In this document: positions 1,902 to 21,128 of the stretch, one piece after another
Layout: each line of letters begins with the position of its first letter
How positions within the stretch are numbered: the first letter of the stretch is position 1
Origin: Candidatus Omnitrophota bacterium
GTDB taxonomy: Bacteria; Omnitrophota; Gorgyraeia; Zapsychrales; Fredricksoniimonadaceae
Direction of reading: 5' to 3'
DNA length: 64,000 nt
Assembly (NCBI GenBank): GCA_903860135.1
Contig: CAIOPG010000016.1
Coordinates: 2,674 to 66,673, forward strand
Made by a program: the position numbers and the translations under genes
Notes under the pieces: model-generated
What the model was told of the DNA's origin: nothing
Database searches by the model: none
Seen by the model: the letters and a program-made list of their open reading frames with translations, nothing else

Positions 1902-2984
1902 ATGCTTGCCAGATCATTCAGTTTTGGGCTCAACGGACTTGACGCTTACCCGATCACCATTGAAGTGGATGTCGCCAAAGGCTTGCCCGCGTTCACCATT
2001 GTCGGTCTGCCAGACAGTGCCATCCGCGAAAGCAAGGAACGCGTCCGCTCGGCGATCAAGAACTCGCATTTCACGTTCCCGTCAGCGAGGATAACGATCA
2101 ACCTCGCGCCTGCGGATACGCCAAAGGAAGGCCCCTGCTTCGACCTGCCCATTGCGCTGGGTCTGCTGGCGGCCACAGAACAACTGCCGGTCGCAACCTT
2201 GTCCCGTTTCGCCTCGCTCGGTGAACTTTCCCTCACCGGCAAGATCCAGTCCGTTTCAGGTTGCCTTCCGGCCGCCATCGCCTCGACCTGCCAACGCGAA
2301 GAAACCCTCGAAGGGCTGCTTGTCCCCCAGGCCAATGCCGAGGAAGCCGCCCTGGCTGAACATGCCCGGATATTCCCTTTCCGAACCCTTGAAGCAGTCG
2401 TTTGTTTTCTCCACACCCCTGAAGGCATCGGGGCGTTCACGCCCACCCATGATGCCGCAACGCTCGAGGATATCCCGGCGGGGCTCAATTTTGCGGATGT
2501 CAAAGGGCAAAGCCTGGCCAAACGGGGACTTGAAATTGCCTCTGCCGGCGGGCACAATGTCCTGATGATCGGGCCTCCGGGCAGTGGCAAGACCATGCTG
2601 GCCAGAAGATTTCCCTCGATCCTGCCACCTATGACCCGCGCGGAAGCCCTTGAGATCACCAAGATCCACTCCATCACAGGCTATGCCCGCACCGAGCGGA
2701 TGCTCATTGCCCAGCGCCCTTTCCGCACCCCGCATCACAGCGCATCGATGGTCTCTTTAGTCGGCGGTGGTTCAGATCCCAAACCCGGGGAGGTCACCCT
2801 GGCGCACAATGGCGTTCTTTTCCTGGATGAATTACCAGAATTCGGCCGCAATGCCCTCGAAGCCCTGCGGCAACCCCTGGAAGACCGGTGCGTAACCATT
2901 GCGCGTGCCTCAAAAACCCTGCGTTTCCCGTCAAAGTTCACGCTCCTGGCCGCCATGAACCCCTGCCCGTGCATCACAATCTGA
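1902..2984 (+). pseudogene. comM: comM/yifB (Mg-chelatase-like AAA+ ATPase) 5' portion, interrupted after the MNPCPC motif by an insertion
   Basis: N-terminal YifB domain, Walker [11 protein letters not shown] and LFLDELPEF. The ORF ends ...[11 protein letters not shown], whereas ComM normally continues MNPCPCG. The missing C-terminus is found at 16759..17247. Confidence 0.85.
2955..2972. repeat. left junction repeat ATGAACCCCTGCCCGTGC (candidate attL core)
   Basis: An 18-bp copy of comM codons MNPCPC. A near-identical copy (16/18) sits at 16762..16779 at the other end of the AT-rich insert. Confidence 0.6.
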
Positions 2985-2998
2985 ATACTAAATTGTTA

Positions 2999-3712
2999 TC
3001 ATAATTCCCCTAAATCAGGGAAGCTCTCAACCTTTCTAGGCAAGCTTTCTAATAAACTTGCCACTGGAGAGGGTGAAAGATAATTGTATTTCTTTAGGAG
3101 ATATATCATCTCCATTAATGGTCCTAGTAAAGTCATCCCGCAGGTCAACTTTGAACTAGTGCTTGTAATCAGTTCACCTAGCAAGTCATTAAAATATAAA
3201 ACCTTCATATCTCCAAACAAATCAATCTTGCTGAATTCGCTGTGAGATATTTCCTTTTTACTGCTAAAAATAACAGTCTTAGAAAATACATCTTTCCTTT
3301 TTATTGCATAGAATAGAGCATGCGAGTGGGGAGGCTCACCTATTGTTTCATAAGTATAATCTGGACTATTGCGCAAGTCATCCCTCTGACAACAATCTAA
3401 ATACACATGATATTGCCCACCTTGATCAATGGCTAAAAGTTGATTATCGACACCAATCAATGCAGGCTCGCGATAAAGCTCATACGGTGCATTCTCAATA
3501 ATATGCTGCTCTCTTGTAAAACTAATCCATAATTTGATTAATTCACGATATGTTGATCCAAATATATCGTCGTAATTCATTTTCTTATCAATATTAATAC
3601 TGCTAAATTTATCGTGCTGCATATATACATTTCTTCTGCTGCTAGATTTCATAATTTTCCTTTCGTTAGAGTTCATACAGCTCAATATCAATATCATCCT
3701 TAGTTGAAACAT
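2999..3712 (-). CDS. hypothetical protein (element cargo, AT-rich)
   Basis: 237-aa ORF at the extreme left end of the insert. No recognisable motif. The real start may be the internal MKSSSRRN. Confidence 0.4.
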   Translation of the reverse strand: MFQLRMILILSCMNSNERKIMKSSSRRNVYMQHDKFSSINIDKKMNYDDIFGSTYRELIKLWISFTREQHIIENAPYELYREPALIGVDNQLLAIDQGGQYHVYLDCCQRDDLRNSPDYTYETIGEPPHSHALFYAIKRKDVFSKTVIFSSKKEISHSEFSKIDLFGDMKVLYFNDLLGELITSTSSKLTCGMTLLGPLMEMIYLLKKYNYLSPSPVASLLESLPRKVESFPDLGEL

Positions 3713-5141
3713 GAATCACTTTGACTAACTCGGTCAGAATCTCCCGCTGCGTTCGTGGTGTTAGCTTGAGAAAGGCTCCCTTCAAGTCCTTAACCCGGCG
3801 TAGCAAGGTTACACGCTTATCACGAGCCTTAGGATTAACATCAAGGATAAGTCGCTCCCTTAATGTCTGTAACTTCTCTAAGTCTTTGGCGATGTTATCC
3901 ATTCGCTCCACCAACAAGTCTTTAGAGATTGCTCCATCCTCAAACAGCTCGAGTAACTTCTTCTGCTTGCCCAGCATCTTGTTCAGATTTCTTTCCACTC
4001 CTTTCAACTCCTCTGCCGGTTTATCCTGCTTCAATCGTTCCAATACCTTCTCAGCATCGTGCTCATCAAAATGAAGGTTCGCATACTGCTGAATCTTTTC
4101 TAGAACGACCTTCTCCAAGTTCTGCTTATTGATAGAGACTCCTAAACATACATTTGGCCCTTTGCTTATGTGGTTATGACATCGGTAATAGCTAAAGGAT
4201 TTCCCGTTCTGCTTACTCGTACACTGACCACAAAGAGATCCGCCGCACTCAGTACACCGCATCAGACCTGATAGAAGATAAAACTCTCCTGAACGATGCT
4301 GTTTTATGTAGCGTCGTTGCTTTACTAGAGCCTGAACTCTCTCATACTGCTCCTCGGTGATAATCGGAGTGAAATCACCCTTCCTCACAGTCCATTTATC
4401 CTTAGGCAAGTAAACCTTTGAACCACCGGCTCGCTTCCCGTAGGTGTAGTACCCCATGTAAGGTGGGCTTGTCAGCACTCTTCTCACGGTTGTTGCCGCC
4501 CAAGTCTGTCCTCGCTTGGTTGTGTACGCCTTCTTATTCATCCAATGCGTCAGGCCCCTAAGCGTTCGGATTTCCTCAAACTTGGTGTACATTGCTCTTA
4601 CGACTTTAGCCTCAGCACCATTAATCACTAACCCCTTATCCTTAACGTCGTAGCCATATGGTGGCTGCCCTCCACAGAAATCACCACGATCTGCCTTGTG
4701 ATACATCGCATCTTTTACACGTTCAACTGTGATCGACCGCTCCCATTCGGCCAAACTACCCAAGATCGTCAACATCAACCTACCCGTGGGCGAAGTCGTG
4801 TCTAAATTTTCACTTAGCGATATAAAGCTAACGTCGTGCTTACTAAGAAGGTCTACGAAATCCAGCAAGTCCCTAACATTCCGCGCCACCCTGTCAAACT
4901 TGTAAACGACGACAGTCCCAACAGAACCATCCGCAATCCGTGCTAGAAGTTGGCTAAAAGCAGGCCTATTGATACTCGCGGCGGAGTAACCGTTATCAAC
5001 AAAGTGTTCTGCTCGAGTGAGGTTCTTTCTTGCTACTTCCTGCTCGAGCCACTCCTTCTGCCGAGGCACAGACAGCCCTTTATCACGTTGGATGTCTGTC
5101 GACACCCTAGAGTACAGAGCTGTGACCTTAGATGTCATCAC
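3666..5141 (-). CDS. large serine recombinase (candidate integrase of the element)
   Basis: N-terminal resolvase catalytic domain (LYSRVSTDIQRDKGLSVPRQ). Recombinase domain. Cys-rich zinc-ribbon segment (CTECGGSLCGQC...YYRCHNH). C-terminal coiled coil. 491 aa. Confidence 0.9.
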   Translation of the reverse strand: MMTSKVTALYSRVSTDIQRDKGLSVPRQKEWLEQEVARKNLTRAEHFVDNGYSAASINRPAFSQLLARIADGSVGTVVVYKFDRVARNVRDLLDFVDLLSKHDVSFISLSENLDTTSPTGRLMLTILGSLAEWERSITVERVKDAMYHKADRGDFCGGQPPYGYDVKDKGLVINGAEAKVVRAMYTKFEEIRTLRGLTHWMNKKAYTTKRGQTWAATTVRRVLTSPPYMGYYTYGKRAGGSKVYLPKDKWTVRKGDFTPIITEEQYERVQALVKQRRYIKQHRSGEFYLLSGLMRCTECGGSLCGQCTSKQNGKSFSYYRCHNHISKGPNVCLGVSINKQNLEKVVLEKIQQYANLHFDEHDAEKVLERLKQDKPAEELKGVERNLNKMLGKQKKLLELFEDGAISKDLLVERMDNIAKDLEKLQTLRERLILDVNPKARDKRVTLLRRVKDLKGAFLKLTPRTQREILTELVKVIHVSTKDDIDIELYEL

Positions 5142-5276
5142 ACATCAAGATTGCACGTAGAATCCTCGTTCGTCTTTCACGCCGCTCACTCTCATCAACT
5201 TTGACAGAATGAACCTTAACGATAATCCCGTGAACAATCTCCCTTCCTTCAGCTCTTTCTTTAAGTTCAATAGTCA
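5127..5276 (-). CDS. small 49-aa ORF overlapping the recombinase start (candidate recombination directionality factor or regulator)
   Basis: MTIELKERAEGREIVHGIIVKVHSVKVDESERRERRTRILRAILMCDDI. Basic C-terminus. Sits between the MCM-like gene and the recombinase. Below the 60-aa track cutoff. Coordinates approximate. Confidence 0.3.
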
Positions 5277-5280
5277 TAAA

Positions 5281-7368
5281 TCACACCTTATCAAGATTAA
5301 CGTCAACCTCATACTGCTGCTCCGTTGTGGGATTGCCACCATCTTCATCAAAGTACTGCTCGAAGAATTTGTTACCCTTAACAGTCTTGCGACATCCTTT
5401 GGCTGTTCGCACAATGAGCCCATGCTTGAAAAGAATCTCCATGCTGGCTCTTATTGGTTTATCACCAACGCTTAATGACTTCTCAAGCGTCTCTTGCTTA
5501 ACAAATTCATGTGATAAAACAGCCTTGAGAACCTGCATCATTGTTCCTTTATAATTTTCATCAACTTTCCTCGACTTAATATCGGCAGTAATGCGTTTAT
5601 AATCATCAAGGTCTAAATTTTCATTGATGTGCATCGCTGACACATACTTATCAAATCGGCAATTGTCATGATCGTAAACTTGTTGCAACTTCTTAACTAG
5701 AAACAGGACATGACCCTGCTTAACAACAATCTTTTCATGACTCTCATCGGTTGAATGCAACAACGCTGCAAGGCCTACCGACATCCTGGCCAATTTCTCA
5801 TGAATATCAGTCAGCACTAATGGGATTGTCGGATCTTCATACTTGTTGAGCATTAGATCTGATTGGCGCAGAATCTCGTTAGTAGCCTCCTTTTCGAATA
5901 CGACATCATTAATCCCCTTCCGCCACGCCCATAAAATACTTTGCTGAAGAAGCTTAGGCGTTATGGACTGATGAACTTTCTCACGTTCCTCATCCAACAT
6001 GAGAATGACCTTTCTAGGGACATCCCCCCGTCGGACACAAATAACGACATCTAATCGCCTAATATCCGCCGGTCGCTGATAATTAATAGCTGTTATCGGG
6101 TATTGAAAGTTATCCATTGGCTCTCCACTAACAGGATTCGCCAAGAATACATACCGAACTCTACATGGATGCTCAGCTTTAACTGACTTCGTGACAATCA
6201 TTACGCCACTTGATCTTGCGCTGCTAAATTCTTCCATCTCTTCGGACTTAAACTTCTGAGCTTCGTCGACAACTACAGCTTTCTTATCATTCAATGGCCC
6301 AACGCCCCATGTAATTATTCGCTGATTGTTTATCACAGTATCGAGGCTGTAACCTAATCCTGTTCGTGATGATGCACTTCCACTTGTCATTTGGCCAATA
6401 CCAATACCCCGAACAAGTCGCTCCACTAATGTTGATTTTCCCTGTGCAGTATCGCCCATCACCATCATTTCACCCCAACCCTTAGTCTTCGCTCCGTTAA
6501 ACTTAAACTGAAGCACGGTGTGAAAAGTAATCAGCACAAATAGCAGAATATTTACGCGGCACTCACCATAAATCTTGGTGATGTTCGCAGTAACGTCTTT
6601 AAGTGTTCTATTCACTGCGATTTCTATCAACTCTGGACTATCATGGACCGCTCGAAATTTCTTAAACTCTGACTTGATGCTATCCGTTGTTTCCTGTGCA
6701 TCAATATCTGTCCTAAGTGGTTCGACTGCTTGAACAAATAAAGTTGCAGCCTGTGTCTTGGGATGTGGTACAACTACGCCGGTAAGACGAAAATGCCCGT
6801 CAGTCTTTATCAAGTTCCCAGCTAGGTAAACAATCTTCTGTCTATAGTCCCGGCCCTTCTCATCAACTAATTCGCCATTATCCCCTTCATTAATAACCTG
6901 TGCCTGAGGTACTACAACCAGTTCTTGCACGGCTGTATACGCCACAAGCCGTATCGACAATCGGCAATCTTCACTAACTTGAGCCTGTAACGACTTCTTG
7001 ATAATCCGCTCCACCTGATCAGAATCTTTTCGACAGAGCGTCAGTATCGTTGGGTCTGTCGCTTCAAATCGAATAGATGAACCTTTTCGATAGCTACAAT
7101 TGCCACACGCGGATCTGTTCTTATCAACGAACGCACACTCCACTGCAAACTGCACCGGCACTTGAAAGCTTTCCACTGCGGCAGTAATCCTTACATCAAC
7201 CTGAACTCGTTTATTGACATACTCTGACTTCTCAATATCAGTCAAATGCACAGCAACTGGTGGAATGCTTTCGTCAATTTGTATAGCTCTACTCGGATGA
7301 GTACTACATTCAACAACCCTCTTCTTAGACATTAGGATTTCCCTTTCTTTTCTTTGGTTTAATCCCAA
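5281..7368 (-). CDS. MCM-like AAA+ ATPase / putative replicative helicase of the element
   Basis: Walker A MMVMGDTAQGKSTL resembles MCM GDPGxAKSQ. Walker B VVVDEAQKF. N-terminal CxxC pair (SACGNCSY). C-terminal winged-helix-like tail. 695 aa. Confidence 0.5.
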   Translation of the reverse strand: MGLNQRKEREILMSKKRVVECSTHPSRAIQIDESIPPVAVHLTDIEKSEYVNKRVQVDVRITAAVESFQVPVQFAVECAFVDKNRSACGNCSYRKGSSIRFEATDPTILTLCRKDSDQVERIIKKSLQAQVSEDCRLSIRLVAYTAVQELVVVPQAQVINEGDNGELVDEKGRDYRQKIVYLAGNLIKTDGHFRLTGVVVPHPKTQAATLFVQAVEPLRTDIDAQETTDSIKSEFKKFRAVHDSPELIEIAVNRTLKDVTANITKIYGECRVNILLFVLITFHTVLQFKFNGAKTKGWGEMMVMGDTAQGKSTLVERLVRGIGIGQMTSGSASSRTGLGYSLDTVINNQRIITWGVGPLNDKKAVVVDEAQKFKSEEMEEFSSARSSGVMIVTKSVKAEHPCRVRYVFLANPVSGEPMDNFQYPITAINYQRPADIRRLDVVICVRRGDVPRKVILMLDEEREKVHQSITPKLLQQSILWAWRKGINDVVFEKEATNEILRQSDLMLNKYEDPTIPLVLTDIHEKLARMSVGLAALLHSTDESHEKIVVKQGHVLFLVKKLQQVYDHDNCRFDKYVSAMHINENLDLDDYKRITADIKSRKVDENYKGTMMQVLKAVLSHEFVKQETLEKSLSVGDKPIRASMEILFKHGLIVRTAKGCRKTVKGNKFFEQYFDEDGGNPTTEQQYEVDVNLDKV

Positions 7369-7909
7369 ATGCCAACATAATTGCTTTTGAGAATCGTTCC
7401 CTTTTTTCAGGAGTGAGATTGCTCAACTCATTCATCGGATCATTAACAAAGAAATAATAATATGTTCCCCAATAAATCAAACACTGTTTAATACAGGTCA
7501 AACATGTGGCATTCTTTACATCCATCCTTAATTCCTTCTTACATTCACTGCACATCAAACTTGACCGAATCACAAGTTGGGTTTTTACGCATTTATTACA
7601 CAGCCAGACACCTTTTTGCTGTATTAAATCTTTCCTACTAAAAAGTTTCGTCTCAGAATCCTCAAGATTGATGTTCAGTGTATTTATTCTCATAGCAACT
7701 GCTCGATTAGTTAGACAATCTGACCCACACTTAAGACACTGACAACGCTTTACATAGAGATTGCTGTTACCCTTAACTGAAAGATTACACAATTTCCCCA
7801 TAAGCGTTTGATCATCATCAATAATATGTGTGTTACTAACTTCCTTCATAAACTCAGAGTCCACAACTCTTCCCATATCACCATGTCTACTTCGTATTTC
7901 TATTACCAT
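7325..7909 (-). CDS. Cys-rich (multi CxxC) zinc-finger-like protein
   Basis: CQCLKCGSDC, CNKC, CSECKK, CLTCIKQC. No homology recognised. Confidence 0.45.
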   Translation of the reverse strand: MVIEIRSRHGDMGRVVDSEFMKEVSNTHIIDDDQTLMGKLCNLSVKGNSNLYVKRCQCLKCGSDCLTNRAVAMRINTLNINLEDSETKLFSRKDLIQQKGVWLCNKCVKTQLVIRSSLMCSECKKELRMDVKNATCLTCIKQCLIYWGTYYYFFVNDPMNELSNLTPEKRERFSKAIMLAFGIKPKKRKGNPNV

Positions 7910-7963
7910 TTCTCCTCCTAATTGTTACCGTTCTTCTATTCATTATTTCTATAAACTTAATTC

Positions 7964-8326
7964 TCAACCATGTACCATTTCGAATTGCAATGCTTTACGT
8001 TTCTTGGCATTGAAATACTCAGCAAATTCAACATTCAATCTCAATGCACGTTTCATTTGGCATACACAACCACTGCCATCACATACATCAGGTTTAAGCT
8101 GACACTCCAAACAGGCCACCTTATCCATATGCTTTACGAACTGTTCAATGCACGCCCTACATATCCAGGATCTCTTGGGGTAACCTTTAATAGATATTCC
8201 TTCCACAAGTTCTTCAATGTCATTACACAAACAACAAATATCACCAGCTCCAGCGTACTTTCGTCTCTTGCCATACAAATTAAAGAATTCATCGACTGTT
8301 ATTGGCTTTCTAACTGATTTATTCAT
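7964..8326 (-). CDS. Cys-rich zinc-finger-like small protein
   Basis: CCLCND, CRAC, CLEC, CDGSGCVC. Confidence 0.45.
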   Translation of the reverse strand: MNKSVRKPITVDEFFNLYGKRRKYAGAGDICCLCNDIEELVEGISIKGYPKRSWICRACIEQFVKHMDKVACLECQLKPDVCDGSGCVCQMKRALRLNVEFAEYFNAKKRKALQFEMVHG

Positions 8327-8652
8327 ATTCCCCTCTTTCCTTTGCCCACTGTTCTTATATCCATACTCATATTTAATCCGTCATCTCTTGTCAGAAGTAA
8401 GCTAACACTCGATCTAAGCCCGGCCAAAGAAGCAAACGCCTCTAATCTCTCACTAATTTCAACTATCTCTTTTGCAGCAGCACAGTCACTTCGTTGCCGT
8501 AGGTTACATTTGCCATACAACCCCTCAAAAGTTAACCTTCCACTGCTACCTGAACAATAACAATGGTCACATTTAAAACCCATTAGCGAACCTTGACCTT
8601 GCCCATCCTTAACTACTAGCCCATCTACCTTCCTGCTCATATTGCTCTTCAT
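8323..8652 (-). CDS. Cys-containing small protein
   Basis: CDHCYCSGSSG ... CNLRQRSDC. Start overlaps the upstream gene by 4 nt (coupled). Confidence 0.4.
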   Translation of the reverse strand: MKSNMSRKVDGLVVKDGQGQGSLMGFKCDHCYCSGSSGRLTFEGLYGKCNLRQRSDCAAAKEIVEISERLEAFASLAGLRSSVSLLLTRDDGLNMSMDIRTVGKGKRGI

Positions 8653-8701
8653 ACACGTTCCTTTCTTTATTCCACACTGTGGAATGTTCGGTTAAAAAAT
8701 T

Positions 8702-9259
8702 TTACTGGGCGATCAACTCGGACATCTTGTTAAAATATTCTTTAAAATCCAACACTCTCTTGCGAAAATCAGACCATATTTCAGCCTGCTTCTTCCGAAG
8801 CTCCAAAAATTCTTTCTTAGCTTGTTTCTTGGAATTAGAGTCAAATTTATCTTTAGAGAACTCAAATTCACCTGTAGGCCCCATCATCCATGACATAAGC
8901 TGTAAATTAAGGTTAATAATATCTTCTCCCTCCTCCTCATCCAGATCGAACTCAACCTGTGCAAAATTAAATATCTTAACCTCCAGATCACAAAATTCCT
9001 TTAACTCAGATAATGGGATGTGTGCCGTACGAAGTAACAGAATCATTCTAAAGAATTCAACTTCTGCGGATGTATAACTACTCTTTGCCCCGTGCGCACC
9101 ACTTGCCCCGGTTGCCAGTTTCCTGCGAGAAGATGAACGCCGCAAATTTAAAGCATCTTCCATCTTCCAAAGCCAAGCACTGGAAACTCCAACTCTTTGG
9201 CAAACTTCTTGTCCTGTGAAATCATTATCTTCTTTTGACATGAGCAAAGTATTCCACAC
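8702..9259 (-). CDS. helix-turn-helix (MerR/excisionase-like) DNA-binding protein
   Basis: N-terminal FTGQEVCQRVGVSSAWLWKMED resembles MerR-type/AlpA HTH. Acidic coiled-coil C-terminus. Immediately downstream of the second recombinase. Confidence 0.5.
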   Translation of the reverse strand: MWNTLLMSKEDNDFTGQEVCQRVGVSSAWLWKMEDALNLRRSSSRRKLATGASGAHGAKSSYTSAEVEFFRMILLLRTAHIPLSELKEFCDLEVKIFNFAQVEFDLDEEEGEDIINLNLQLMSWMMGPTGEFEFSKDKFDSNSKKQAKKEFLELRKKQAEIWSDFRKRVLDFKEYFNKMSELIAQ

Positions 9260-9282
9260 TGGGGAATAAAAGTCAAGGAAAA

Positions 9283-10155
9283 TTATTTTGCTCTATGTCC
9301 AACAAGATTATTTTCAGACACGTGAGGTATCGCGTGTCTAGCCACAATACACCTCTGAACCTTATCGAATACTTTCTCGTCGATAATCTTTTCAACTGCG
9401 CCGGGCTTCTCGATACAATCGCCACCCCATCCTCTAGCCTTAACCTTTCTAAATCCCCATCGGGCTGCACCCTTATAAACCGGGTTGGTCAGAATTCTCT
9501 GTACCTTTTTGCTCGAAAATAATTTTCCGTATGAACTTTTTACGCCTACCTTATTTAGCACCGTTGCCACAGCCGTCATGTTCTTGCGCTTAAGAAATTC
9601 TCGAAAGATCTGCTCCACTATCGGCTTAGTATTGTCATCAATAATCAGACGCTTGCCTTCCACTTTATAGCCAAGTGGTGGCCGCCCTCCCAAAAACTGC
9701 CCGGTCAAAGATGCCATTGCATTCCTACATCTAATACCTCCAGAGGTGGCCTCATACTCACCAAACACGCCCAAGACTGAGAACAGCACCCTTCCTCCCG
9801 GGCTCTTGGTATCAATCAGCTCAACGACTGACTCGAGGCCAACACCACAGCGGCGAAACTCATAGTCCAAATTCAGCAGATCCCTAACATTGCGAGAAAT
9901 TCGATCGAACCGCCAAGTCAGCACAACATTAAAGTCTGCCTTCTCCTTCATATCTTGAAGCAACTGCGCCAAAGCCGGGCGACGTATAGGCGGAAGCGTA
10001 CCAGAATAAGCCTCATCAGTATAAACCCGGACCAACGTTCCACCTTGGGCTGTGATGTAAGCCTCACACCGAGCTCTCATCGCCGATAAACTACAACCAT
10101 CCTCTACCTGAGAATTGCTACTTACACGCAGATAAACTACGAAAGCCTTGCTCAC
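9283..10155 (-). CDS. serine recombinase (resolvase/invertase-size) second recombinase
   Basis: VVYLRVSSNSQ catalytic serine region. DRISRNVRDLL motif shared with the large recombinase (DRVARNVRDLL). 290 aa. Confidence 0.85.
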   Translation of the reverse strand: MSKAFVVYLRVSSNSQVEDGCSLSAMRARCEAYITAQGGTLVRVYTDEAYSGTLPPIRRPALAQLLQDMKEKADFNVVLTWRFDRISRNVRDLLNLDYEFRRCGVGLESVVELIDTKSPGGRVLFSVLGVFGEYEATSGGIRCRNAMASLTGQFLGGRPPLGYKVEGKRLIIDDNTKPIVEQIFREFLKRKNMTAVATVLNKVGVKSSYGKLFSSKKVQRILTNPVYKGAARWGFRKVKARGWGGDCIEKPGAVEKIIDEKVFDKVQRCIVARHAIPHVSENNLVGHRAK

Positions 10156-10306
10156 TTTACCCTCCCTTGTTCGCCATCCAACTCGTAAGCGTTCTCTAAT
10201 TTATAATCTTCAACCCTGATAGTCCCGCAACGGCATCGAAATGTGATCTCGATGCACTCATCGCCATGATTGCGTTTCAACTCCATCCATGCGTGATGAC
10301 AGTTCT

Positions 10307-10879
10307 TCACTTTCCCCACTGCTCCTTGTCCAGTCGCTCACCCTCAAGGTACAGGTCATGAGCCAAGACATACAGCTCAGGATATGAGAGCTCGATCTTA
10401 GCCTGCCTAACCATCCGCGCACAGACTCGCACCGCCACCAACTCACCCTTGCACGTAAATACTGGGTCAAGGGTCGGAACCTTACAAAAATAGGCCTGCA
10501 AATCCTTCATCTGTCGCCAAGGCTTAGCCTTAAACATGGCCTCACCTCTGTACTCCTTTATCAAATTCCATTTCAGAGGACTGTTCGTGTAAAAATCACC
10601 CCATTGAACTTCCTTACACTCTTTCAGATCTCGACACACAATCCTCTCAAAATTAGGAGGAAGAATTAAACCACTACTCCCTAAGATTTTACTAATCCTT
10701 GCCAGCTCCTGCCTCAGCCAAGCTCGGAAATCTTCAACCGAGGTACCGGGTGGAGAATCCTTGGCATACCATATTTCATCAGTACTCATCACACCTCCAT
10801 ATATATTCCTATAAAGCAGAAATCCCTCTTTCCGTGGCATTTCTCCACGTCCAGAGGGCACAAAGGGAATCGAGGGCAA
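10307..10879 (-). CDS. hypothetical protein
   Basis: 190-aa ORF with no recognisable motif. Probable start at MSTDEIWYAKD. Confidence 0.4.
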   Translation of the reverse strand: MPSIPFVPSGRGEMPRKEGFLLYRNIYGGVMSTDEIWYAKDSPPGTSVEDFRAWLRQELARISKILGSSGLILPPNFERIVCRDLKECKEVQWGDFYTNSPLKWNLIKEYRGEAMFKAKPWRQMKDLQAYFCKVPTLDPVFTCKGELVAVRVCARMVRQAKIELSYPELYVLAHDLYLEGERLDKEQWGK

Positions 10880-11403
10880 CCCTCGAGAACATATCTATAT
10901 CCCAATAAAATTAAAACACAGAGAAAGCTCAGACACAATATTGAAACTGAGTAAATATTTTAGAGAGATATAAAACCATTAACAAAACACTCACTCTTTA
11001 AACAGGAAAGTACTAAGGGTTAATTAAAACCACTTAACCCTGCTTAAAATATTTCTAAACGATTTTAGATAGAAGAGAAATACTTTAAAAATTAAGAAGA
11101 ATATTTTAAAGTTGGTTGCTTTACAGAACTAGTACAGGTATGCCGGGAAGAACTTCCCTCTGTACCCTTTGCTCCCTTGAAAGAGCTGAGAACTCTTTCA
11201 ACAAGTTAATTATGATTAATTATTATGGGCAACCTACTATAACCATTTACCTATACTGAGAACGCTTGTCTACTCCTAAGCATCCAATAAAAAGAAAGTG
11301 CCATATACTATCGAGTAAGTAGTAAAAGAATAATGACGATCCAGAAATATAAGGCATTAAATTCTGTCTTTACCTGTTGAGATACTCGGACGGAGAAATG
11401 CTA
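10880..11403. other. 524-bp AT-rich non-coding region with a hairpin and short reiterated motifs (candidate origin or regulatory region of the element)
   Basis: No ORF. Hairpin GGGTTAAttaaaaccacTTAACCC at ~11017-11040. Repeated TTTTAGAGAGATA / TTTTAGATAGAAGAGA / AATATTTT motifs. Confidence 0.4.
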
Positions 11404-11964
11404 CTAGTTTAACCGCTTGTAAACAGCCAACCAATCATTAGCAATAACACTTTGTGCTGCACGGAGCTCCATCTGTCCAGAGCAGACCTGTTCGTGTAGG
11501 TAATTCTCAACCTTATCTTTCTCGTGGAATCCCGGCCTAGGCTCCGCTGGTTCAGGCCAGAGATTAGCAATGTCATTGGACCCACCGAGTTCTAACGGCA
11601 CCAAGTGATCTACTTCATACTCACCTTTAACACGATGCTCGACGCCATACTCAGCATAAACATCACGCTTCAATGCTACTGTAACATTTCTCATGGTCTT
11701 GGTGTAACCCGACACACAAATCTCGGCCACCGTTGCCTGTTCAAACACTGCACCGGGTGTGCAGGCCTTGTCCGGCAGTGATCCCTGCTTTACACAGTTA
11801 AAGTCTTTAGTCCTAGCACCAATAGTTGGCGTTGATTGAACAGTCTGCTGGACCTGCTGAGGTTGCGGTGTCTGTTTGTACTGCTCAGAGATAATCCAAG
11901 CAACAAGAATTAGCAACAGGAAGAATGCTGCGATCACTAAAAGGTTTCTGGCGTTAGTGTTCAA
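11404..11964 (-). CDS. membrane-anchored HNH endonuclease family protein
   Basis: N-terminal TM helix LLVIAAFFLLLILVAWI. HNH signature YEVDHLVPLELGGSNDIANLWPE. Confidence 0.65.
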   Translation of the reverse strand: MNTNARNLLVIAAFFLLLILVAWIISEQYKQTPQPQQVQQTVQSTPTIGARTKDFNCVKQGSLPDKACTPGAVFEQATVAEICVSGYTKTMRNVTVALKRDVYAEYGVEHRVKGEYEVDHLVPLELGGSNDIANLWPEPAEPRPGFHEKDKVENYLHEQVCSGQMELRAAQSVIANDWLAVYKRLN

Positions 11965-12173
11965 CCCGCATCCTCCTGATCGACCAGACCCTTCTTGGTA
12001 AAAATCTGCTTTCCATCTTCACTGTACTCGATCTCAGCGTCATCTGGGGTTAAAATTACCAGAGCAACACCCGGATCTTTGGAAAGGATCTCCACCCTAC
12101 CATCCTCATGAAACTTTATGACAACTTTCTTCGGCTTCTCTTTTTCCATAATTTCCCCAAGGTTTACAGACAA
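11961..12173 (-). CDS. small hypothetical protein translationally coupled to the HNH gene
   Basis: 4-nt overlap with the HNH start. Probable start MEKEKPKKVVIKFHEDG. Acidic C-terminus. Confidence 0.35.
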   Translation of the reverse strand: MSVNLGEIMEKEKPKKVVIKFHEDGRVEILSKDPGVALVILTPDDAEIEYSEDGKQIFTKKGLVDQEDAG

Positions 12174-12251
12174 TTATGAACAATAGTGAACATTTAACGA
12201 CTTCTATGTACCCAAAGTCGTAGAATAAGTAAACTTTCTTCCGATTTACTC

Positions 12252-12280
12252 TTGACAAGATAATGGTTTAGTATACTATA
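12252..12280 (+). promoter_or_regulatory. sigma70-like promoter for ORF 12303
   Basis: TTGACA ... TATACT/TACTAT, followed by GGAGGAAATT-ATG. Confidence 0.35.
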
Positions 12281-12302
12281 TGAAGTAAGAACGGAGGAAA
12301 TT

Positions 12303-12698
12303 ATGAGTGAAAGAACTGTTAATCCAGTATTGTTTACAAAGCCTAGATCAAAACTATCGTCAAAGACATTGACCATGAGCCCTAAAGGCGGGTTCATGTT
12401 CTCCTCCGGTGCCTGCCATGAGTGGGATCTGCTCAAGTATAAGTTCTGCATTCTTGGTTACGATCCTGTAGAAAAAGCAGTGTGTTTCCAGTTCGTAGAC
12501 TTAGCTGACTACGTTGGTGCAATAAAACTCACCATTCGTAAAGCTGGCAACCTATCCCTTCAATCAGGAGCCTTCTTTGCCTTCAACAGATTAGACCCAA
12601 AAGAACTCGCGGGCCGGTACAGCATTGTTAAGCAGGATCTCCCTGAAAAAGGCACATGGTTTGTTGCCTTCCTAGACTCTAACCACTCTAAAAAGTAA
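12303..12698 (+). CDS. hypothetical protein
   Basis: 131 aa with a strong RBS. Only plus-strand gene in this part of the element besides the putative endonuclease. Confidence 0.45.
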   Translation: MSERTVNPVLFTKPRSKLSSKTLTMSPKGGFMFSSGACHEWDLLKYKFCILGYDPVEKAVCFQFVDLADYVGAIKLTIRKAGNLSLQSGAFFAFNRLDPKELAGRYSIVKQDLPEKGTWFVAFLDSNHSKK

Positions 12699-12709
12699 AA
12701 AACATGGCA

Positions 12710-12776
12710 AACATTTACATTGATGGGCGCACCACAAGAAGAACTCCAGAATCTTCTTGTGCCAACTGTAAATGTT
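12710..12776. promoter_or_regulatory. nested inverted repeats between ORF 12303 and the putative endonuclease gene
   Basis: Outer arms AACATTTACA / TGTAAATGTT. Inner arms CACAAGAAGA / TCTTCTTGTG. No downstream T-run, so more likely an operator or attenuator than an intrinsic terminator. Confidence 0.35.
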
Positions 12777-12954
12777 GGGGGAGCCTCCAAAGCTCTCCCA
12801 GCCATGTTTTTATGTTATGAGTATACATCAAGCTAATCTATGACGCAAGGTTGACCTTATTTTTCATCCCCTGTCCTTCTAACCATGCTTAAATATCTTC
12901 GTTACATTATTTGTATATTCGGTATTATACTATTATAAAAATTGTTACCAATAA

Positions 12955-15003
12955 ATGACATCAACTACTAATCCTCAACAAATAATCAACCTATCAATTC
13001 ACGGTGATAATATCGTTGAGTGCGAACGCGCTTGGGCATTAATCAAAGATGCGTTCAATTGCCACTCAAGCACACCTTCAATTATCCCCGATTCAATTAT
13101 TGCCCCTAACTTTGAAGCATCCTCTCAAGAATATAATATTCAACTTCGTGCAGTATTTCTCCCTGGGTTTAACCGATGGAGTCCAGATATTCTAGCCCAT
13201 ATTAAGAATCGCGGCGCTATGTTACGTGAGGCTGCCGATGCTATTATTTGCCTAAATCTAACATCTAAAGATAATCAACCCATTCAAATCCCGTTGTTAG
13301 CAATCGAATTCTGTGGAGCCTTAGCTGCAGGGAATCAAGCTTGGCAACGCTGCGGTCGAGCATTAGCTTTTTCGGCAGCTAAGATTCCTTATATTTATTT
13401 AGCAGAACTAGGCGGATTTGAGTTAGATGAAGATAGAAATATAAAAGCTGTACGATTGCCTAACCCATTAATCCCATTTGCTTATCTAACATTATCATTC
13501 CAATCCGATACATTCGCATTACCCGTTTTCATTCCAAATGCGGCAGCAGATAAAACAGCCTTGACCAACTTTCATAATTGTTTTGGTTTACCTAATTTGC
13601 TCGAGCTAATTCGCCACGCTATCTTAAACACAAACCCATCCTCCTCAGCCAATGCTTTAACAGCTAAAACACTCGCACTCGTTAATATTCTATCGGACAA
13701 TCGAAAGCAAAAAGTTAAGAATACCTTTACTCCTCCACTATGGGAAGAATGGCTTAAAACAATCCATAATGATCAGACTGCTGCTACTTACATTGCACAA
13801 CAAGCACTTAGTTGGGGAAAAACAGCATATATAGCCGGACTAACTCAAACCACAAAGAATGTTATCAACTCCGCGCCGAAATATGCGATTGGCGCCGGAG
13901 CATCTCAAGTCCCAATCTGTGTAGTTCCCGCAAGCCAACGCGTCAATTTTGCTAACTTTATCATCACGCAATATCCAAAGTTAACACCTCAATTTCGTAA
14001 TTGGCTTAAAGAAGACCGGCCTCTTGGTATTTGCTGGGTAATGGGATTCAAACCTCGAGGGGATGACGCTCGACCTGATCGTGGACTTCCCCCTCTAGCT
14101 CGTATGATATTTGGACCCAAGACTGATCTCTTAACATTTGTCTATGGACCTGCCAAACCATTCTCCTGGCCCTTATTGCACAATAAACCACAACAATTAG
14201 CTAATCAAAATGGGCTTTGGGAAGCAATCTTAGCAATGAGCGATGCAATATTGGTAGACAGCATTACGGATAAAAATATTACAGATAAAGGCTACCTTCG
14301 CAGCCACTGGCATAAGGCTCAATCACCAATACCTCCATCTCCACTCCCGGTTAGTGTTATCACTCCAACATCACTCGGAGAGAATGATGTTGACACCGTA
14401 ATACACCTCCTAATGACTTCCAATAAAGAAATAGTATTCGAAGGTATGTGCAACCCGCCCGGCGGAGATTGGAGTGGTATTTCAATTAAGGATAGTGCTA
14501 ATAATGTAACTCTGGAGAAGCGTTGGCTTTCCCTGCCAAGGGTTAGCGCACAACAACACAAAAGACCAGACCATGTCTTTCAAATATTCTTTCCGAATAA
14601 GCTTCCGATTATTCTCTCAGTTGAATCTAAGGAGAAATCATCTGACGTCGAGCCAAATATCGGCGAAAGACTTTCTGGCTACATTCAACAGCTTATGAAA
14701 GTTCCATCCTCCGTAGAACGAGAGTTCCCCAAAGGAGCTTGGAAGGTATCAGTCGATAAAATTGATCTAAAGAAATTTAGATTCGCATCAGCTGTGGCAT
14801 TCTTATCAGATAGTAATAATGAATTAGAAATTGCCAAAAAGAAATCTCAAGCAGATTTGATAATTGGAATAACGATATCAGCTAACGGAAAAGATGCGGA
14901 ATTGAAACTGCTTGCAGGATCACCTATTGGAACAGAATTGCTCACATCAATTCATTCCTTAACAAAAATATCAAGACTACCTATAAAAGCCTCAATAATT
15001 TAA
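12955..15003 (+). CDS. large uncharacterised protein, candidate restriction endonuclease of a two-methyltransferase R-M module
   Basis: 682 aa. Convergent with, and 12 nt overlapping, the Dam-family methyltransferase gene. C-terminal half has a PD...ESK arrangement (RPDHVFQIF...ILSVESKEK) compatible with a PD-(D/E)xK nuclease. No methyltransferase motifs. Confidence 0.45.
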   Translation: MTSTTNPQQIINLSIHGDNIVECERAWALIKDAFNCHSSTPSIIPDSIIAPNFEASSQEYNIQLRAVFLPGFNRWSPDILAHIKNRGAMLREAADAIICLNLTSKDNQPIQIPLLAIEFCGALAAGNQAWQRCGRALAFSAAKIPYIYLAELGGFELDEDRNIKAVRLPNPLIPFAYLTLSFQSDTFALPVFIPNAAADKTALTNFHNCFGLPNLLELIRHAILNTNPSSSANALTAKTLALVNILSDNRKQKVKNTFTPPLWEEWLKTIHNDQTAATYIAQQALSWGKTAYIAGLTQTTKNVINSAPKYAIGAGASQVPICVVPASQRVNFANFIITQYPKLTPQFRNWLKEDRPLGICWVMGFKPRGDDARPDRGLPPLARMIFGPKTDLLTFVYGPAKPFSWPLLHNKPQQLANQNGLWEAILAMSDAILVDSITDKNITDKGYLRSHWHKAQSPIPPSPLPVSVITPTSLGENDVDTVIHLLMTSNKEIVFEGMCNPPGGDWSGISIKDSANNVTLEKRWLSLPRVSAQQHKRPDHVFQIFFPNKLPIILSVESKEKSSDVEPNIGERLSGYIQQLMKVPSSVEREFPKGAWKVSVDKIDLKKFRFASAVAFLSDSNNELEIAKKKSQADLIIGITISANGKDAELKLLAGSPIGTELLTSIHSLTKISRLPIKASII

Positions 15004-15810
15004 ATACAAAGACTCCTCCACCATATTCTTCGTCTTATCTATTACTTTTCTGAAACTCGAATAACCTGAGCGCAAAAGAAAATGCCTCTTATATAATGAT
15101 TTCGGAATTTCTACAGAATAATCTTTCTCCGTACTCTTCCCATCGAACGACAATGCGTATTTTATCTTCTTCTTATTTAAACGATTCAATTCATCAAGAA
15201 ACTCACTAAAATTAATTGTGCCATAATATCGCCCCTTTGTATAAAAATATGGCGGATCTAAATATACAAAATCTCCAGTTTCAACTCTCGCCAAAGTCTT
15301 TCTATAATCACCGACACAAAAGTCAACTGGCTTCACAACCTCTTGCCACTCTACTAGAATTCCCGCCAATCTTTCAGGCTGGATGCCTCTTCTTGTATGA
15401 TGTAATGAATTGTTAAACTCCCCATTCTTATTAAATCTAATAAGCCCATTCACGCATGTCCTAGAAAGAAAGAAGAGATCATATGGACTATGTGTTTCAT
15501 TAAACCGATTACGAACATCATAAAAGACTAAATGACCGTCGGCCTTCAATCTATTCCACTCCTTCTGATAATAAGTCAACAAACTATCTGGAGAATCTTG
15601 AACGACTTTCCATAAATCAATAAGCGGCTTACAAATATCACTGCAAACAGCAATCTTAGGTCGAAGATATGAAATTATAGATCCCCCACCAATAAATGGC
15701 TCGTAATAGCACCCTAAATCCTGAGGGAACTTACTCACTATCTCTTTAGCTTGACTTCGTTTACTACCTGTCCATTTAATGATTGGCATCAATGAATTTC
15801 CAAGTCTCAT
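14992..15810 (-). CDS. Dam-family (alpha-class) N6-adenine DNA methyltransferase, DpnM-like
   Basis: IIKWTGSKR (the KWAGGK-type motif of the Dam family). Motif I EPFIGGGS precedes motif IV TGDFVYLDPPY. Confidence 0.85.
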   Translation of the reverse strand: MRLGNSLMPIIKWTGSKRSQAKEIVSKFPQDLGCYYEPFIGGGSIISYLRPKIAVCSDICKPLIDLWKVVQDSPDSLLTYYQKEWNRLKADGHLVFYDVRNRFNETHSPYDLFFLSRTCVNGLIRFNKNGEFNNSLHHTRRGIQPERLAGILVEWQEVVKPVDFCVGDYRKTLARVETGDFVYLDPPYFYTKGRYYGTINFSEFLDELNRLNKKKIKYALSFDGKSTEKDYSVEIPKSLYKRHFLLRSGYSSFRKVIDKTKNMVEESLYLNY

Positions 15811-16640
15811 CGTGATTCATCCCCTTTTACAAAAAGGTCAGGCTCGGTAAATTCAACCCTTTCTTTCGCGAGTTTAATATATTCCTCACTTATTTCAAAT
15901 GCAATATATCGACGATCCAACATTTTTGCGGCTACACATTCTGTTCCAGACCCACAAAATGGAATCAAACAAACATCTCCCGGCTTACTCGCAATAGAAA
16001 TAATTCTATCTGCTATTCTAATAGGCTTCTGAGTTGGATGAGAACCATACTTCCGTTCAACTTTCGTCTTATTATTGGGAATATCCCAGACGGTTCTCAT
16101 CTGCTTCCCCTTCTTCTTCAACAAGTCTTCAGCAAAATCACCATTCTTAGTATACGGATAATTAAAGAAATACTTTCGCTTCCCTTTACCATAATGGCCC
16201 CATAACAACGTTTCATGACTTGCAGTCAAACGCCGCCCTGACAAATTGGGGAATGAATTCCTTTTATACCAAACAACCTCATTAATAATTTCAATTCCTA
16301 GAAGTTGAAATACGAAGTTTATAACTCCAATATTATGATATGTTCCATATACCCAAATAGAGCCTGTAGGCTTCAACAATCGCTTTGCTTCAGTCAACCA
16401 AGCTAGAGTGAAATTAAAATATTCACTTAGCCCCATACAGTCCCAATCTTCCATCACTTTATTCCAAACGCCACCCATGCCCTTCAACTCAACACTTTTA
16501 TCCCATCCCCACTTATTGCCTTTCGACAAATTATATGGTGGATCAGCAATAATTAAGTCGATTGAGGAATCTGGCAAGGCCTTCATCCCGTCGACACAAT
16601 CCTGATGTATTATTGAATTTAGAGATTTTTCTATCTGCAT
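15807..16640 (-). CDS. beta-class N6A/N4C DNA methyltransferase, DpnA-like
   Basis: DLIIADPPYN near the N-terminus and SHPTQKP...IPFCGSGTECVAAKMLDRRYIAFEISEEY near the C-terminus (D12-class order, collinear with DpnA). ATGA overlap with the Dam-family gene. Confidence 0.85.
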   Translation of the reverse strand: MQIEKSLNSIIHQDCVDGMKALPDSSIDLIIADPPYNLSKGNKWGWDKSVELKGMGGVWNKVMEDWDCMGLSEYFNFTLAWLTEAKRLLKPTGSIWVYGTYHNIGVINFVFQLLGIEIINEVVWYKRNSFPNLSGRRLTASHETLLWGHYGKGKRKYFFNYPYTKNGDFAEDLLKKKGKQMRTVWDIPNNKTKVERKYGSHPTQKPIRIADRIISIASKPGDVCLIPFCGSGTECVAAKMLDRRYIAFEISEEYIKLAKERVEFTEPDLFVKGDESR

Positions 16641-16758
16641 ATTTTAATTTATCCCACATTGTAATAACATAAACTACTCAAGACAAGGTATTTAGCATTT
16701 TCGCAATATTAACATTTCATTATAACAACCCAACCTCCACAACAACGGTTTTAATTTC

Positions 16759-17247
16759 GTGATGAATCCCTGCCCATGCGGCCACCTGGGCGACCGCAAC
16801 AAAGCCTGCCGCTGCAGCAGCGCGCAGATCCAGCGCTACCAGATAAAGATCTCGGGCCCCTTGCTTGACCGCATCGATATTCATCTGGATGTCCCGGCCC
16901 TCAAGACTGATGACCTGTTGAATGCGCCTTCGGGCGAATCGTCCGAAACGATCCGGGCGCGTGTCCTGACAGCGCGTGAACGCCAGCTGGAACGTTTTAA
17001 AGGCGAGGACGTTTTTGCCAACACCCAGATGTCACACCGCCACATCCGCAAACACTGTGCCCTGGATAAAGCCGCGCAAAAACTGCTGAAAGATGCGGTA
17101 GAAACCCTAGGGATCTCGGCCCGCGCCCACGACAAGATCCTGCGCCTGGCCCGCACGATCGCCGACATCGACGGGGCTGACACGATCAACACAGGACATC
17201 TCTCTGAAGCTATCGGGTACAGGACGCTGGACAGGACAAGCACATGA
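16759..17247 (+). pseudogene. comM: comM/yifB 3' portion (C-terminal domain) separated from its 5' part by the insertion
   Basis: MNPCPCGHLGD...LLDRIDIHLDV... matches the ComM/YifB C-terminus. Continues exactly where 1902..2984 breaks off. Confidence 0.85.
16762..16779. repeat. right junction repeat ATGAATCCCTGCCCATGC (candidate attR core)
   Basis: Second copy of the MNPCPC-coding 18-mer, 2 mismatches to the left copy. The comM reading frame resumes here. Confidence 0.6.
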
Positions 17248-17867
17248 TCCAGCTACAGAAAACATTTACATCACATACGAAAAGAAACCGTGTGACATCC
17301 AAAACAACACTTATCCTCACAGAAAGAATTCAACAACGCATATTCTTTGTCCGTAACAAGAAAATCATGCTGGACAAAGACCTCGCTCTTTTGTACGACG
17401 TTGAAACCCGCACACTCAACCAGGCCGTTAAACGTAATGCCCGAAGATTCCCCGAAGATTTCATGTTCCAATTGACTAAGAAAGAATTAACTGAGGTTAT
17501 CACAAACTGTGATAACCTCCCGGATCTAAAGTTCAACCCGTCCCGTCCATACGCTTTTACAGAACACGGCATCCTTATGCTCTCCAGCGTCCTTAACAGC
17601 GAAAAAGCTATCGAAGTTAACATCCAGATCATGCGGACATTCACACAACTGCGGGCGCTGATGGCAACACACAAAGACCTTCAACTCAAGATCACGGCGT
17701 TAGAAAAGCAGTACAACCGGCAATTCAAAATCGTCTTTGAAGCCATCAGAAAACTCATAGAACCGTCTTTAGCACCACAAAGACAAAAACTACCGATCGG
17801 ATTTCATGCAAGGGCGACAGAGGAAACCCCCTCTCACCCCTTGGGCTGTTGCAGAAGGCAGAAATGA
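17244..17867 (+). CDS. ORF6N domain-containing protein
   Basis: IFFVRNKKIMLDKDLALLYDVETRTLNQAVKRNARRFPEDFMFQLT is the ORF6N signature. Overlaps the comM stop by 4 nt. Confidence 0.7.
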   Translation: MIQLQKTFTSHTKRNRVTSKTTLILTERIQQRIFFVRNKKIMLDKDLALLYDVETRTLNQAVKRNARRFPEDFMFQLTKKELTEVITNCDNLPDLKFNPSRPYAFTEHGILMLSSVLNSEKAIEVNIQIMRTFTQLRALMATHKDLQLKITALEKQYNRQFKIVFEAIRKLIEPSLAPQRQKLPIGFHARATEETPSHPLGCCRRQK

Positions 17868-20462: not shown

Positions 20463-20882
20463 CTATACCACCGTTGCAACCCTTAATACCCGTGCCGCCG
20501 CAAGAAGTGCCTTGTCATACGTAAATAGCGGCACGCCCATTTCTATCGCCAAAGAAAGATAGGCCGCGTCATAAATGGTCAACTTATGTTCTTTGGCCAG
20601 ATCAAACGCGGCAAGGCTATCGATAAAATAATTGCGCGGATTTCTTATAACAACATGATAATGCCGTATGACATCAAAAATGGCCTGCTGTGTTTCCAGC
20701 GCTAGCCTGCCTCTGCGGAAAGAATTCAACACAATATTGAGCATTTCATATTCAAATATCACCGGAGCGAACAAGTGGAACTGATGCATGTTCTTAATCA
20801 CATGCTGATACGCTGAAGAATCTTCATCCGACAAAAACCATGATGCCGCCACACTAGCATCTATGACCGCTTCACTTTTCAT
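20463..20882 (-). CDS. vapC: PIN-domain toxin (VapC-like)
   Basis: VIDASVAASWF N-terminus and conserved PIN Asp positions. Paired with the upstream small antitoxin gene. Confidence 0.8.
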   Translation of the reverse strand: MKSEAVIDASVAASWFLSDEDSSAYQHVIKNMHQFHLFAPVIFEYEMLNIVLNSFRRGRLALETQQAIFDVIRHYHVVIRNPRNYFIDSLAAFDLAKEHKLTIYDAAYLSLAIEMGVPLFTYDKALLAAARVLRVATVV

Positions 20883-20885
20883 GCG

Positions 20886-21128
20886 CTAAGCCCGCCCTTC
20901 CCGTTTCCAGGCATTAATCTCATCGATTGTTGTTTGCTTAAATGCCTTGCGAATGTCCCTGATCTTAATCATCAGATTCCCCGGCTCATCCAAAGGGTCG
21001 CTCCTGACAGGCACGATCCTCGCCACAGGCACATTATTCTTCAAAATAACATGTTCTTCACCCAACTGGATATTATTGACGATCTGCGACAAATTACTTC
21101 TGGTTTCAAGTATCCCGCTTTGCGTCAT
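20886..21128 (-). CDS. Phd/YefM-type antitoxin
   Basis: 80 aa. SNLSQIVNNIQLGEEHVILKNNVPVARIVP is a typical Phd/YefM N-terminal fold. 3-nt gap to the VapC gene. Confidence 0.7.
   Translation of the reverse strand: MTQSGILETRSNLSQIVNNIQLGEEHVILKNNVPVARIVPVRSDPLDEPGNLMIKIRDIRKAFKQTTIDEINAWKREGRA

Follow-up and report, generated by a model that had tools for sequence, protein, structure and literature searches.

A BsmI-like Type IIS restriction-modification cassette on a low-GC island within comM of an Omnitrophota bacterium

The window analysed here is a stretch of 64,000 nucleotides (nt) of contig CAIOPG010000016.1 from a Candidatus Omnitrophota bacterium, and our subject is a three-gene restriction-modification (R-M) cassette within it, composed of one endonuclease gene and two DNA methyltransferase genes (Table 1). 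An open reading frame (ORF) scan places the endonuclease ORF, which encodes 682 amino acids (aa) and contains neither a frameshift nor an internal stop, on the forward strand. It converges on the gene for a Dam-family methyltransferase, the two overlapping by 12 nt at 14992-15003. The two methyltransferase genes overlap by 4 nt (ATGA) and therefore look like one operon. A first-pass annotation, made from the sequence letters, had described the three ORFs, their motifs and the convergent overlap, all of which were confirmed by the ORF scan and by domain searches.

The 682-aa protein is homologous to the restriction endonuclease BsmI. Searched with phmmer against the PDB, it matched the BsmI entries 9EZD, 9F38, 9EZ5 and 9EZ7 with an expect value (E) of ~1e-96, residues 14-658 of the query aligning with residues 5-650 of the 676 in BsmI, and the two proteins are 37% identical over 626 aligned columns. 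In PADLOC, the Type II endonuclease model REase_II PDLC03434, which is PADLOC/REBASE-derived, was matched along positions 8-707 of 713 by residues 13-678 (E = 7e-131), while comparison with homologues shows the ORF to be full length, with 99% coverage. Scans with Pfam and NCBIfam models found nothing significant in this protein, which is why it had looked unrecognisable from its sequence alone; a match to DUF4704 (E = 0.007) lies below the cut-off and is noise. Neither the homologue search nor phmmer against the PDB found a characterised enzyme more than 37% identical to it, and no relative above 48% identity was found in a genome scan.

The predicted structure points in the same direction. 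The AlphaFold2 (AF2) model of the endonuclease, built from 21 homologues, has a predicted local distance difference test (pLDDT) score of 87.6 and a predicted template modelling (pTM) score of 0.89. When it was compared with the PDB using Foldseek, the four BsmI entries were recovered with a template modelling (TM) score of 0.84 and E from 1e-59 to 1.5e-61. Apart from these, E fell below 0.001 for a single entry, a chain of acetyl-CoA carboxylase (TM score 0.09) that is noise. The model displays a predicted three-domain fold, with an EcoRI-like N-terminal domain, a unique central domain and a FokI-like C-terminal domain, together with an insulator loop. This is the architecture of BsmI, a monomeric Type IIS enzyme that cleaves GAATGC at 1/-1 using two different active sites per chain (PMC11889245, PMC1950550, PMC3017599). 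In BsmI, the first cut falls in the bottom strand and is made by the EcoRI-like N-terminal domain, whose motif PD-Xn-E-X12-QR is unusual; the second, in the top strand, is made by the FokI-like C-terminal domain, which carries a PD-Xn-EXK motif (PMC11889245, PMC1950550, PMC3017599). The fold of the central domain is unique (PMC11889245). Monomeric two-site Type IIS endonucleases of this kind make up Class II (PMC3017599). Judged by sequence and by modelled fold, the 682-aa protein thus appears to be a full-length Type IIS endonuclease of the BsmI/Mva1269I family and not a new nuclease family. The structure prediction that the first-pass annotation had advised did reveal a nuclease fold, but the idea of an unrecognised or new endonuclease family gives way to a full-length BsmI homologue with solved structures, and the "atypically large" protein proves to be of normal family size.

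Both active sites of BsmI can be traced in the alignment. At the N-terminal (Cb) site, D18, D95, E118 and Q131-R132 align with D9, D91, E109 and Q122-R123 of BsmI; the resulting motif, A94-D95-X22-E118-X12-Q131-R132, has an E-to-QR spacing of exactly 12 residues and fits the pattern (P/A/F)D-Xn-E-X12-QR, the Cb motif being defined as in PMC1950550 and PMC11889245. At the C-terminal (Ct) site, E476, D539, E557 and K559 align with E470, D528, E546 and K548, and the motif P538-D539-X17-E557-S-K559 fits PD-Xn-EXK. The insulator loop, situated between E476 and P538, is identical to that of BsmI over GMCNPPGGDWSG. Identical in the two proteins as well is the adenine-reading patch GNQAWQR, of which N118, Q119 and Q122 serve in BsmI to read both central adenines, bases that the structure paper considered as possible sites of methylation (PMC11889245). 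When 21 diverse homologues were aligned, no variation was seen at the catalytic positions of either site, in GNQAWQR or in the insulator loop. The metal-binding/catalytic residues of both BsmI active sites are all kept in the window protein. The PD...ESK arrangement picked out in the first-pass annotation is a true PD-(D/E)xK site, equal to the Ct site with its PD-X17-ESK, whereas the N-terminal part, which had been taken for a specificity domain, carries the second, EcoRI-like site ahead of the central recognition domain.

As for the two methyltransferases, they belong to different classes. The Dam-family protein contains KWTGSK, EPFIGGGS and, later in the sequence, DPPY, and is an alpha-class Dam/D12 enzyme (PF02086, E = 8e-35; TIGR00571, E = 2e-44), while the other has DPPY near its N terminus and FCGSGT near its C terminus and is a beta-class N6_N4 enzyme (PF01555, E = 1e-51). 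Against the PDB, the top match of the Dam-family enzyme is DpnM (E = 2e-23), over residues 6-190 only, which correspond to its catalytic half; its score of 81 bits compares with a cut-off of 441 bits for the E. coli Dam equivalog. The beta-class enzyme matches CcrM (6pbd) over its full length with an E of 5e-53, as against 1e-24 for the "DpnA" entries 5hek/5hfj, and the CcrM model is also its top match in NCBIfam, below the cut-off of that model. Its first-pass description as beta-class and DpnA-like is therefore right about the class, but the closest relative is CcrM. Both proteins match the single 626-aa PADLOC model MTase_II PDLC03302, the beta-class enzyme on positions 5-262 (E = 1e-118) and the Dam-family enzyme on positions 357-626 (E = 5e-70), so fused versions of the same pair exist, in contrast to the two separate, overlapping genes in the window. 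M.Mva1269I is such a beta+Dam fusion. The two strands of an asymmetric site differ in sequence, which calls for two N6-adenine methyltransferases, and in the case of BsmI a single operon is used to co-express the enzyme and two methylases (PMC11889245). The two-methyltransferase arrangement is the usual partner set of the BsmI family, with one N6-methyladenine (m6A) enzyme predicted per strand. The proposal of an R-M module in which two adenine methyltransferases accompany an endonuclease of 682 aa is borne out by the BsmI homology and by these family matches.

The linkage of the three genes extends far beyond the window. From 238 species genomes with a relative of the endonuclease, 80 loci were fetched and searched with the two window methyltransferases; the sample spans bacteria and archaea, including CPR/Patescibacteria, Bacteroidota, Chloroflexota, Spirochaetota, Planctomycetota and Proteobacteria. 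Both methyltransferases lie directly beside the endonuclease gene (R) in 77 of the 80 loci, in the order R-> <-Dam <-beta in 76. The Dam-family enzyme adjoins the BsmI-like gene in 79 loci, with 41-57% identity, and the beta-class enzyme is present in 77, with 50-69% identity; both are better conserved than the endonuclease, which is 37-48% identical to that of the window. In a Candidatus Coatesbacteria metagenome-assembled genome (L037:4213-7980), the genes are co-directional and run from the beta-class to the Dam-family methyltransferase and then to R. Three loci lack one or both methyltransferases: the contig of L033 stops within the endonuclease gene, and L019 and L063 have no beta-class enzyme, likely because of a contig end. 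The recognition regions of the methyltransferases are among the segments best conserved across loci. Linkage to methyltransferases, the absence of which had been set beforehand as evidence against the proposed module, is near-universal, and together with the BsmI-type endonuclease it contradicts the idea of a different defence effector. The small ORFs near the cassette (12303..12698, 11404..11964, 11961..12173 and 10307..10879) have no homologues beside it in the 80 loci, which limits the functional unit to the three genes, and among these neighbouring island ORFs no controller (C) protein turned up.

Members of this clade are 37-56% identical and occur in more than 200 species, nearly all of them annotated as "hypothetical protein". 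Of the 120 top-ranking homologues, most have no source name at all, and those that do are named "hypothetical protein" throughout. That the BsmI family lacks a Pfam or NCBIfam model despite its crystal structures is an annotation blind spot.

We consider the locus very probably to be an intact Type IIS R-M cassette with two catalytic sites ("Class II" or IIT-like) of the BsmI/Mva1269I family, carried on an island in comM. The first-pass annotation had seen in the pairing of a Dam-family with a beta-class methyltransferase the hallmark of a GATC system of the DpnII/MboI/LlaDCHI style, in which DpnM- and DpnA-like enzymes would restrain a novel large nuclease or some other effector. Such systems do resemble the cassette in combining two N6-adenine methyltransferases of different classes (alpha Dam-family and beta) with one endonuclease, and in favour of this reading DpnM is the closest solved structure to the Dam-family enzyme and the second enzyme shares its beta class with DpnA. 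However, both sequence and fold make the endonuclease a BsmI homologue, neither DpnII-type nor novel, the DpnM match does not extend past the catalytic half, and the beta-class enzyme is far nearer to CcrM than to DpnA. No DpnII-type endonuclease (~280 aa) is present in the cassette, whose sole endonuclease, without a significant Pfam match, is BsmI-like, of an unrelated type and ~2.4 times larger. In the DpnII system, the second methyltransferase, DpnA, serves single-stranded DNA, whereas the two enzymes of the window, of which the beta-class one is CcrM-like, would both be needed for an asymmetric site. The pairing itself fails as a hallmark, the same two methyltransferases accompanying BsmI-like endonucleases in 77 of the 80 loci, and GATC is over-represented in the window (547 occurrences against 438 expected). 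A GATC system is thus exceedingly improbable. Another alternative accepts the family but supposes a decaying cassette, as in many R-M systems on mobile islands, with active methyltransferases and an endonuclease inactivated outside its catalytic motifs. Promoter and terminator scans at the cassette gave matches no commoner than in shuffled sequence, which holds for the promoter-like hexamers 5' of R (12901-12928, +), a point in favour of decay, and for those 5' of the methyltransferase operon (16686-16658, -). Yet the ORF is full length and free of frameshifts and internal stops, all invariant family residues are kept and the AF2 model is confident, all of which makes decay improbable.

The sequence recognised by the enzyme is less certain than its family, although GAATGC/GCATTC, the site of BsmI, is the probable one. 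It is favoured because the alignment with BsmI runs collinearly through the three domains and shows no domain replacement, because the 37% identity to BsmI exceeds the 30.2% between the isoschizomers BsmI and Mva1269I, which both recognise GAATGC (PMC11889245), and because the adenine-reading patch is identical. Several observations weigh against a BsmI-type enzyme with this site. The central, putatively specificity-determining domain is 28.5% identical to that of BsmI, compared with 43-44% for the catalytic domains, and D95 and E118 are separated by 22 residues rather than the X13-18 of characterised members (PMC1950550). Other specificities are on record in the family, namely ACTGG for BsrI, GGATG for BtsCI, GCAATG for BsrDI and GCAGTG for BtsI (PMC1950550, PMC3017599). 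Finally, the window shows no significant avoidance of GAATGC (26 occurrences against 32.8 expected), a count that is uninformative for a recently acquired island; as an avoidance test, counts of GAATGC, ACTGG, GCAATG, GCAGTG, GGATG and GATC are uninformative in a 64-kb window. The enzyme may then share the family and mechanism of BsmI but act at another site, with the ANTG core kept and the flanking bases changed, which would make it a new specificity and not an isoschizomer. The divergence of the central domain would suit this view, as would a family that already spans at least five specificities (PMC1950550, PMC3017599) and the finding of no characterised enzyme nearer than 37% identity. Against it stand the collinearity with BsmI across three domains without domain replacement, the GAATGC site that BsmI and Mva1269I share at only 30% identity, and the conservation of the methyltransferase pair and of its recognition regions across the 37-56% clade, which suggests one specificity. 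We consider a different site unlikely, though far from negligible; if it were true, the window would add to the solved BsmI scaffold a new Type IIS/nicking-enzyme specificity, one that specificity engineering could exploit. In the literature on M.BsmI/M.Mva1269I and GAATGC methylomes, nothing relevant was found.

If the enzyme works as BsmI does, its mode of action can be outlined. The monomer would clamp the asymmetric site between its N-terminal, central and C-terminal domains. By analogy with BsmI and Mva1269I, the xD...E-X12-QR site would nick the bottom strand first, after which the PD-X17-ESK site would cut the top strand beside the site and leave a 2-nt 3' overhang. The CcrM-like beta-class and Dam-family alpha-class methyltransferases, presumably co-transcribed and convergent to the endonuclease gene, would each protect one strand of the host DNA. 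Whereas the evidence above shows homology, fold, catalytic residues, gene linkage and the borders of the island, we infer enzyme activity, the order of cleavage, the bases methylated and the exact recognition sequence by analogy with the characterised enzymes.

Among these, BsmI (Geobacillus/Bacillus stearothermophilus NUB36) is the closest counterpart found for the window enzyme. The two are of similar length and collinear over three domains, share both catalytic sites, GNQAWQR, the insulator loop and the predicted fold, and are each accompanied by two methyltransferases (PMC11889245 for BsmI). They differ in sequence, overall and most of all in the central domain, the window enzyme has 4-5 extra residues between D95 and E118, and it is the window enzyme that sits on a low-GC mobile island. 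Mva1269I from Micrococcus varians is described, in the papers that cite the original work, as a monomeric BsmI isoschizomer with an EcoRI-like N-terminal and a FokI-like C-terminal site that cut the bottom and then the top strand (Armalyte et al. 2005, cited in PMC1950550, PMC3017599); by that description, its motif layout is the same as that of the window protein. Also related are BsrI and BtsCI, which are monomeric, and BsrDI and BtsI, which are heterodimeric. All four share the Cb PD-Xn-E-X12-QR and Ct PD-Xn-EXK motifs and cleave beside an ANTG core (PMC1950550), but their recognition sequences differ from that of BsmI. BsrDI and BtsI have their two sites on separate subunits, whereas the window protein is a single chain that aligns with BsmI over its full length. 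The 682-aa protein also has a weak PADLOC match, at the GNQAWQR region, to the nicking-endonuclease model PDLC03392 (E = 2.5e-4).

The cassette is a new member of a known, structurally solved restriction-enzyme family and not a new kind of defence. Biochemical knowledge of the BsmI family dates from the 1990s-2000s, and structural knowledge from 2025. It follows that the locus carries little weight for discovery, and its value lies in modest practical points. Because no Pfam or NCBIfam model covers the BsmI family, hundreds of homologues go by the name "hypothetical protein" and may pass for novel effectors, which a family model made from such homologue alignments would mend. The strict co-occurrence across loci shows that a GATC system cannot be read from a "Dam + beta-class methyltransferase" pair alone. 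Lastly, the locus cleanly illustrates how a serine-recombinase island inserted in comM can take along an R-M cassette as its cargo.

This island is 13.8 kb long, has a GC content of 0.414 against 0.516 outside it, and splits comM/yifB. An imperfect direct repeat of 18 bp, ATGAAYCCCTGCCCRTGC, borders it on both sides. The N-terminal portion of ComM (1902..2984; 360 aa), with Mg_chelatase and ChlI domains, breaks off right after the left copy, and the C-terminal fragment (16759..17247) begins at the right copy. Joined at the repeat, the two halves give one open YifB/ComM frame of ~500 aa. Genes on the island encode a large serine recombinase (3666..5141), an MCM-like helicase (5281..7368) and a shorter serine recombinase (9283..10155), in addition to several ORFs lacking family matches in Pfam and PHROG. 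The R-M cassette is cargo of a serine-recombinase island integrated into comM.

Table 1. Features of the R-M cassette and of the island that carries it (window coordinates)
Feature	Coordinates	Strand	Evidence
BsmI-family Type IIS endonuclease, one chain with two predicted catalytic sites	12955..15003	+	phmmer PDB, PADLOC, AF2/Foldseek
N-terminal (Cb, EcoRI-like) site, predicted bottom-strand cutter, with GNQAWQR patch	13006..13350	+	BsmI alignment
C-terminal (Ct, FokI-like) site, predicted top-strand cutter	14380..14631	+	BsmI alignment
Alpha-class Dam/D12-family N6-adenine methyltransferase, 272 aa, predicted to protect one strand	14992..15810	-	PF02086, TIGR00571, PADLOC
Beta-class CcrM-like N6-adenine methyltransferase, 277 aa, predicted to protect the other strand	15807..16640	-	PF01555, CcrM, PADLOC
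Integrative low-GC island, R-M cassette at its right end	2973..16761		GC, Pfam and PHROG matches
Left repeat copy (18 bp, imperfect direct repeat), ATGAACCCCTGCCCGTGC, in comM, putative attachment-site core	2955..2972	+	
Right repeat copy, ATGAATCCCTGCCCATGC, at which the C-terminal fragment of comM starts	16762..16779	+	

Other features of the window were noted in passing. On the island, a 186-aa ORF (11404-11964, -) with an N-terminal hydrophobic segment has an HNH-like motif, EVDHLVPLELGGSNDIANLWPE, and no Pfam or PHROG match. Just outside it, a gene for an ORF6N/KilA-N-type DNA-binding protein (17244-17867, +; PF10543, E = 2.6e-30) starts at the comM stop codon. Further downstream of the island (20463-21128, -) lies a putative VapC/PIN toxin (139 aa) and antitoxin (80 aa) pair, judged by eye from the translations. 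In the window as a whole, GAGTC/GACTC is rarer than expected under a maximal-order Markov model (31 occurrences against 52.7), a scarcity that might reflect another, PleI/MlyI/HinfI-like R-M system of the host.

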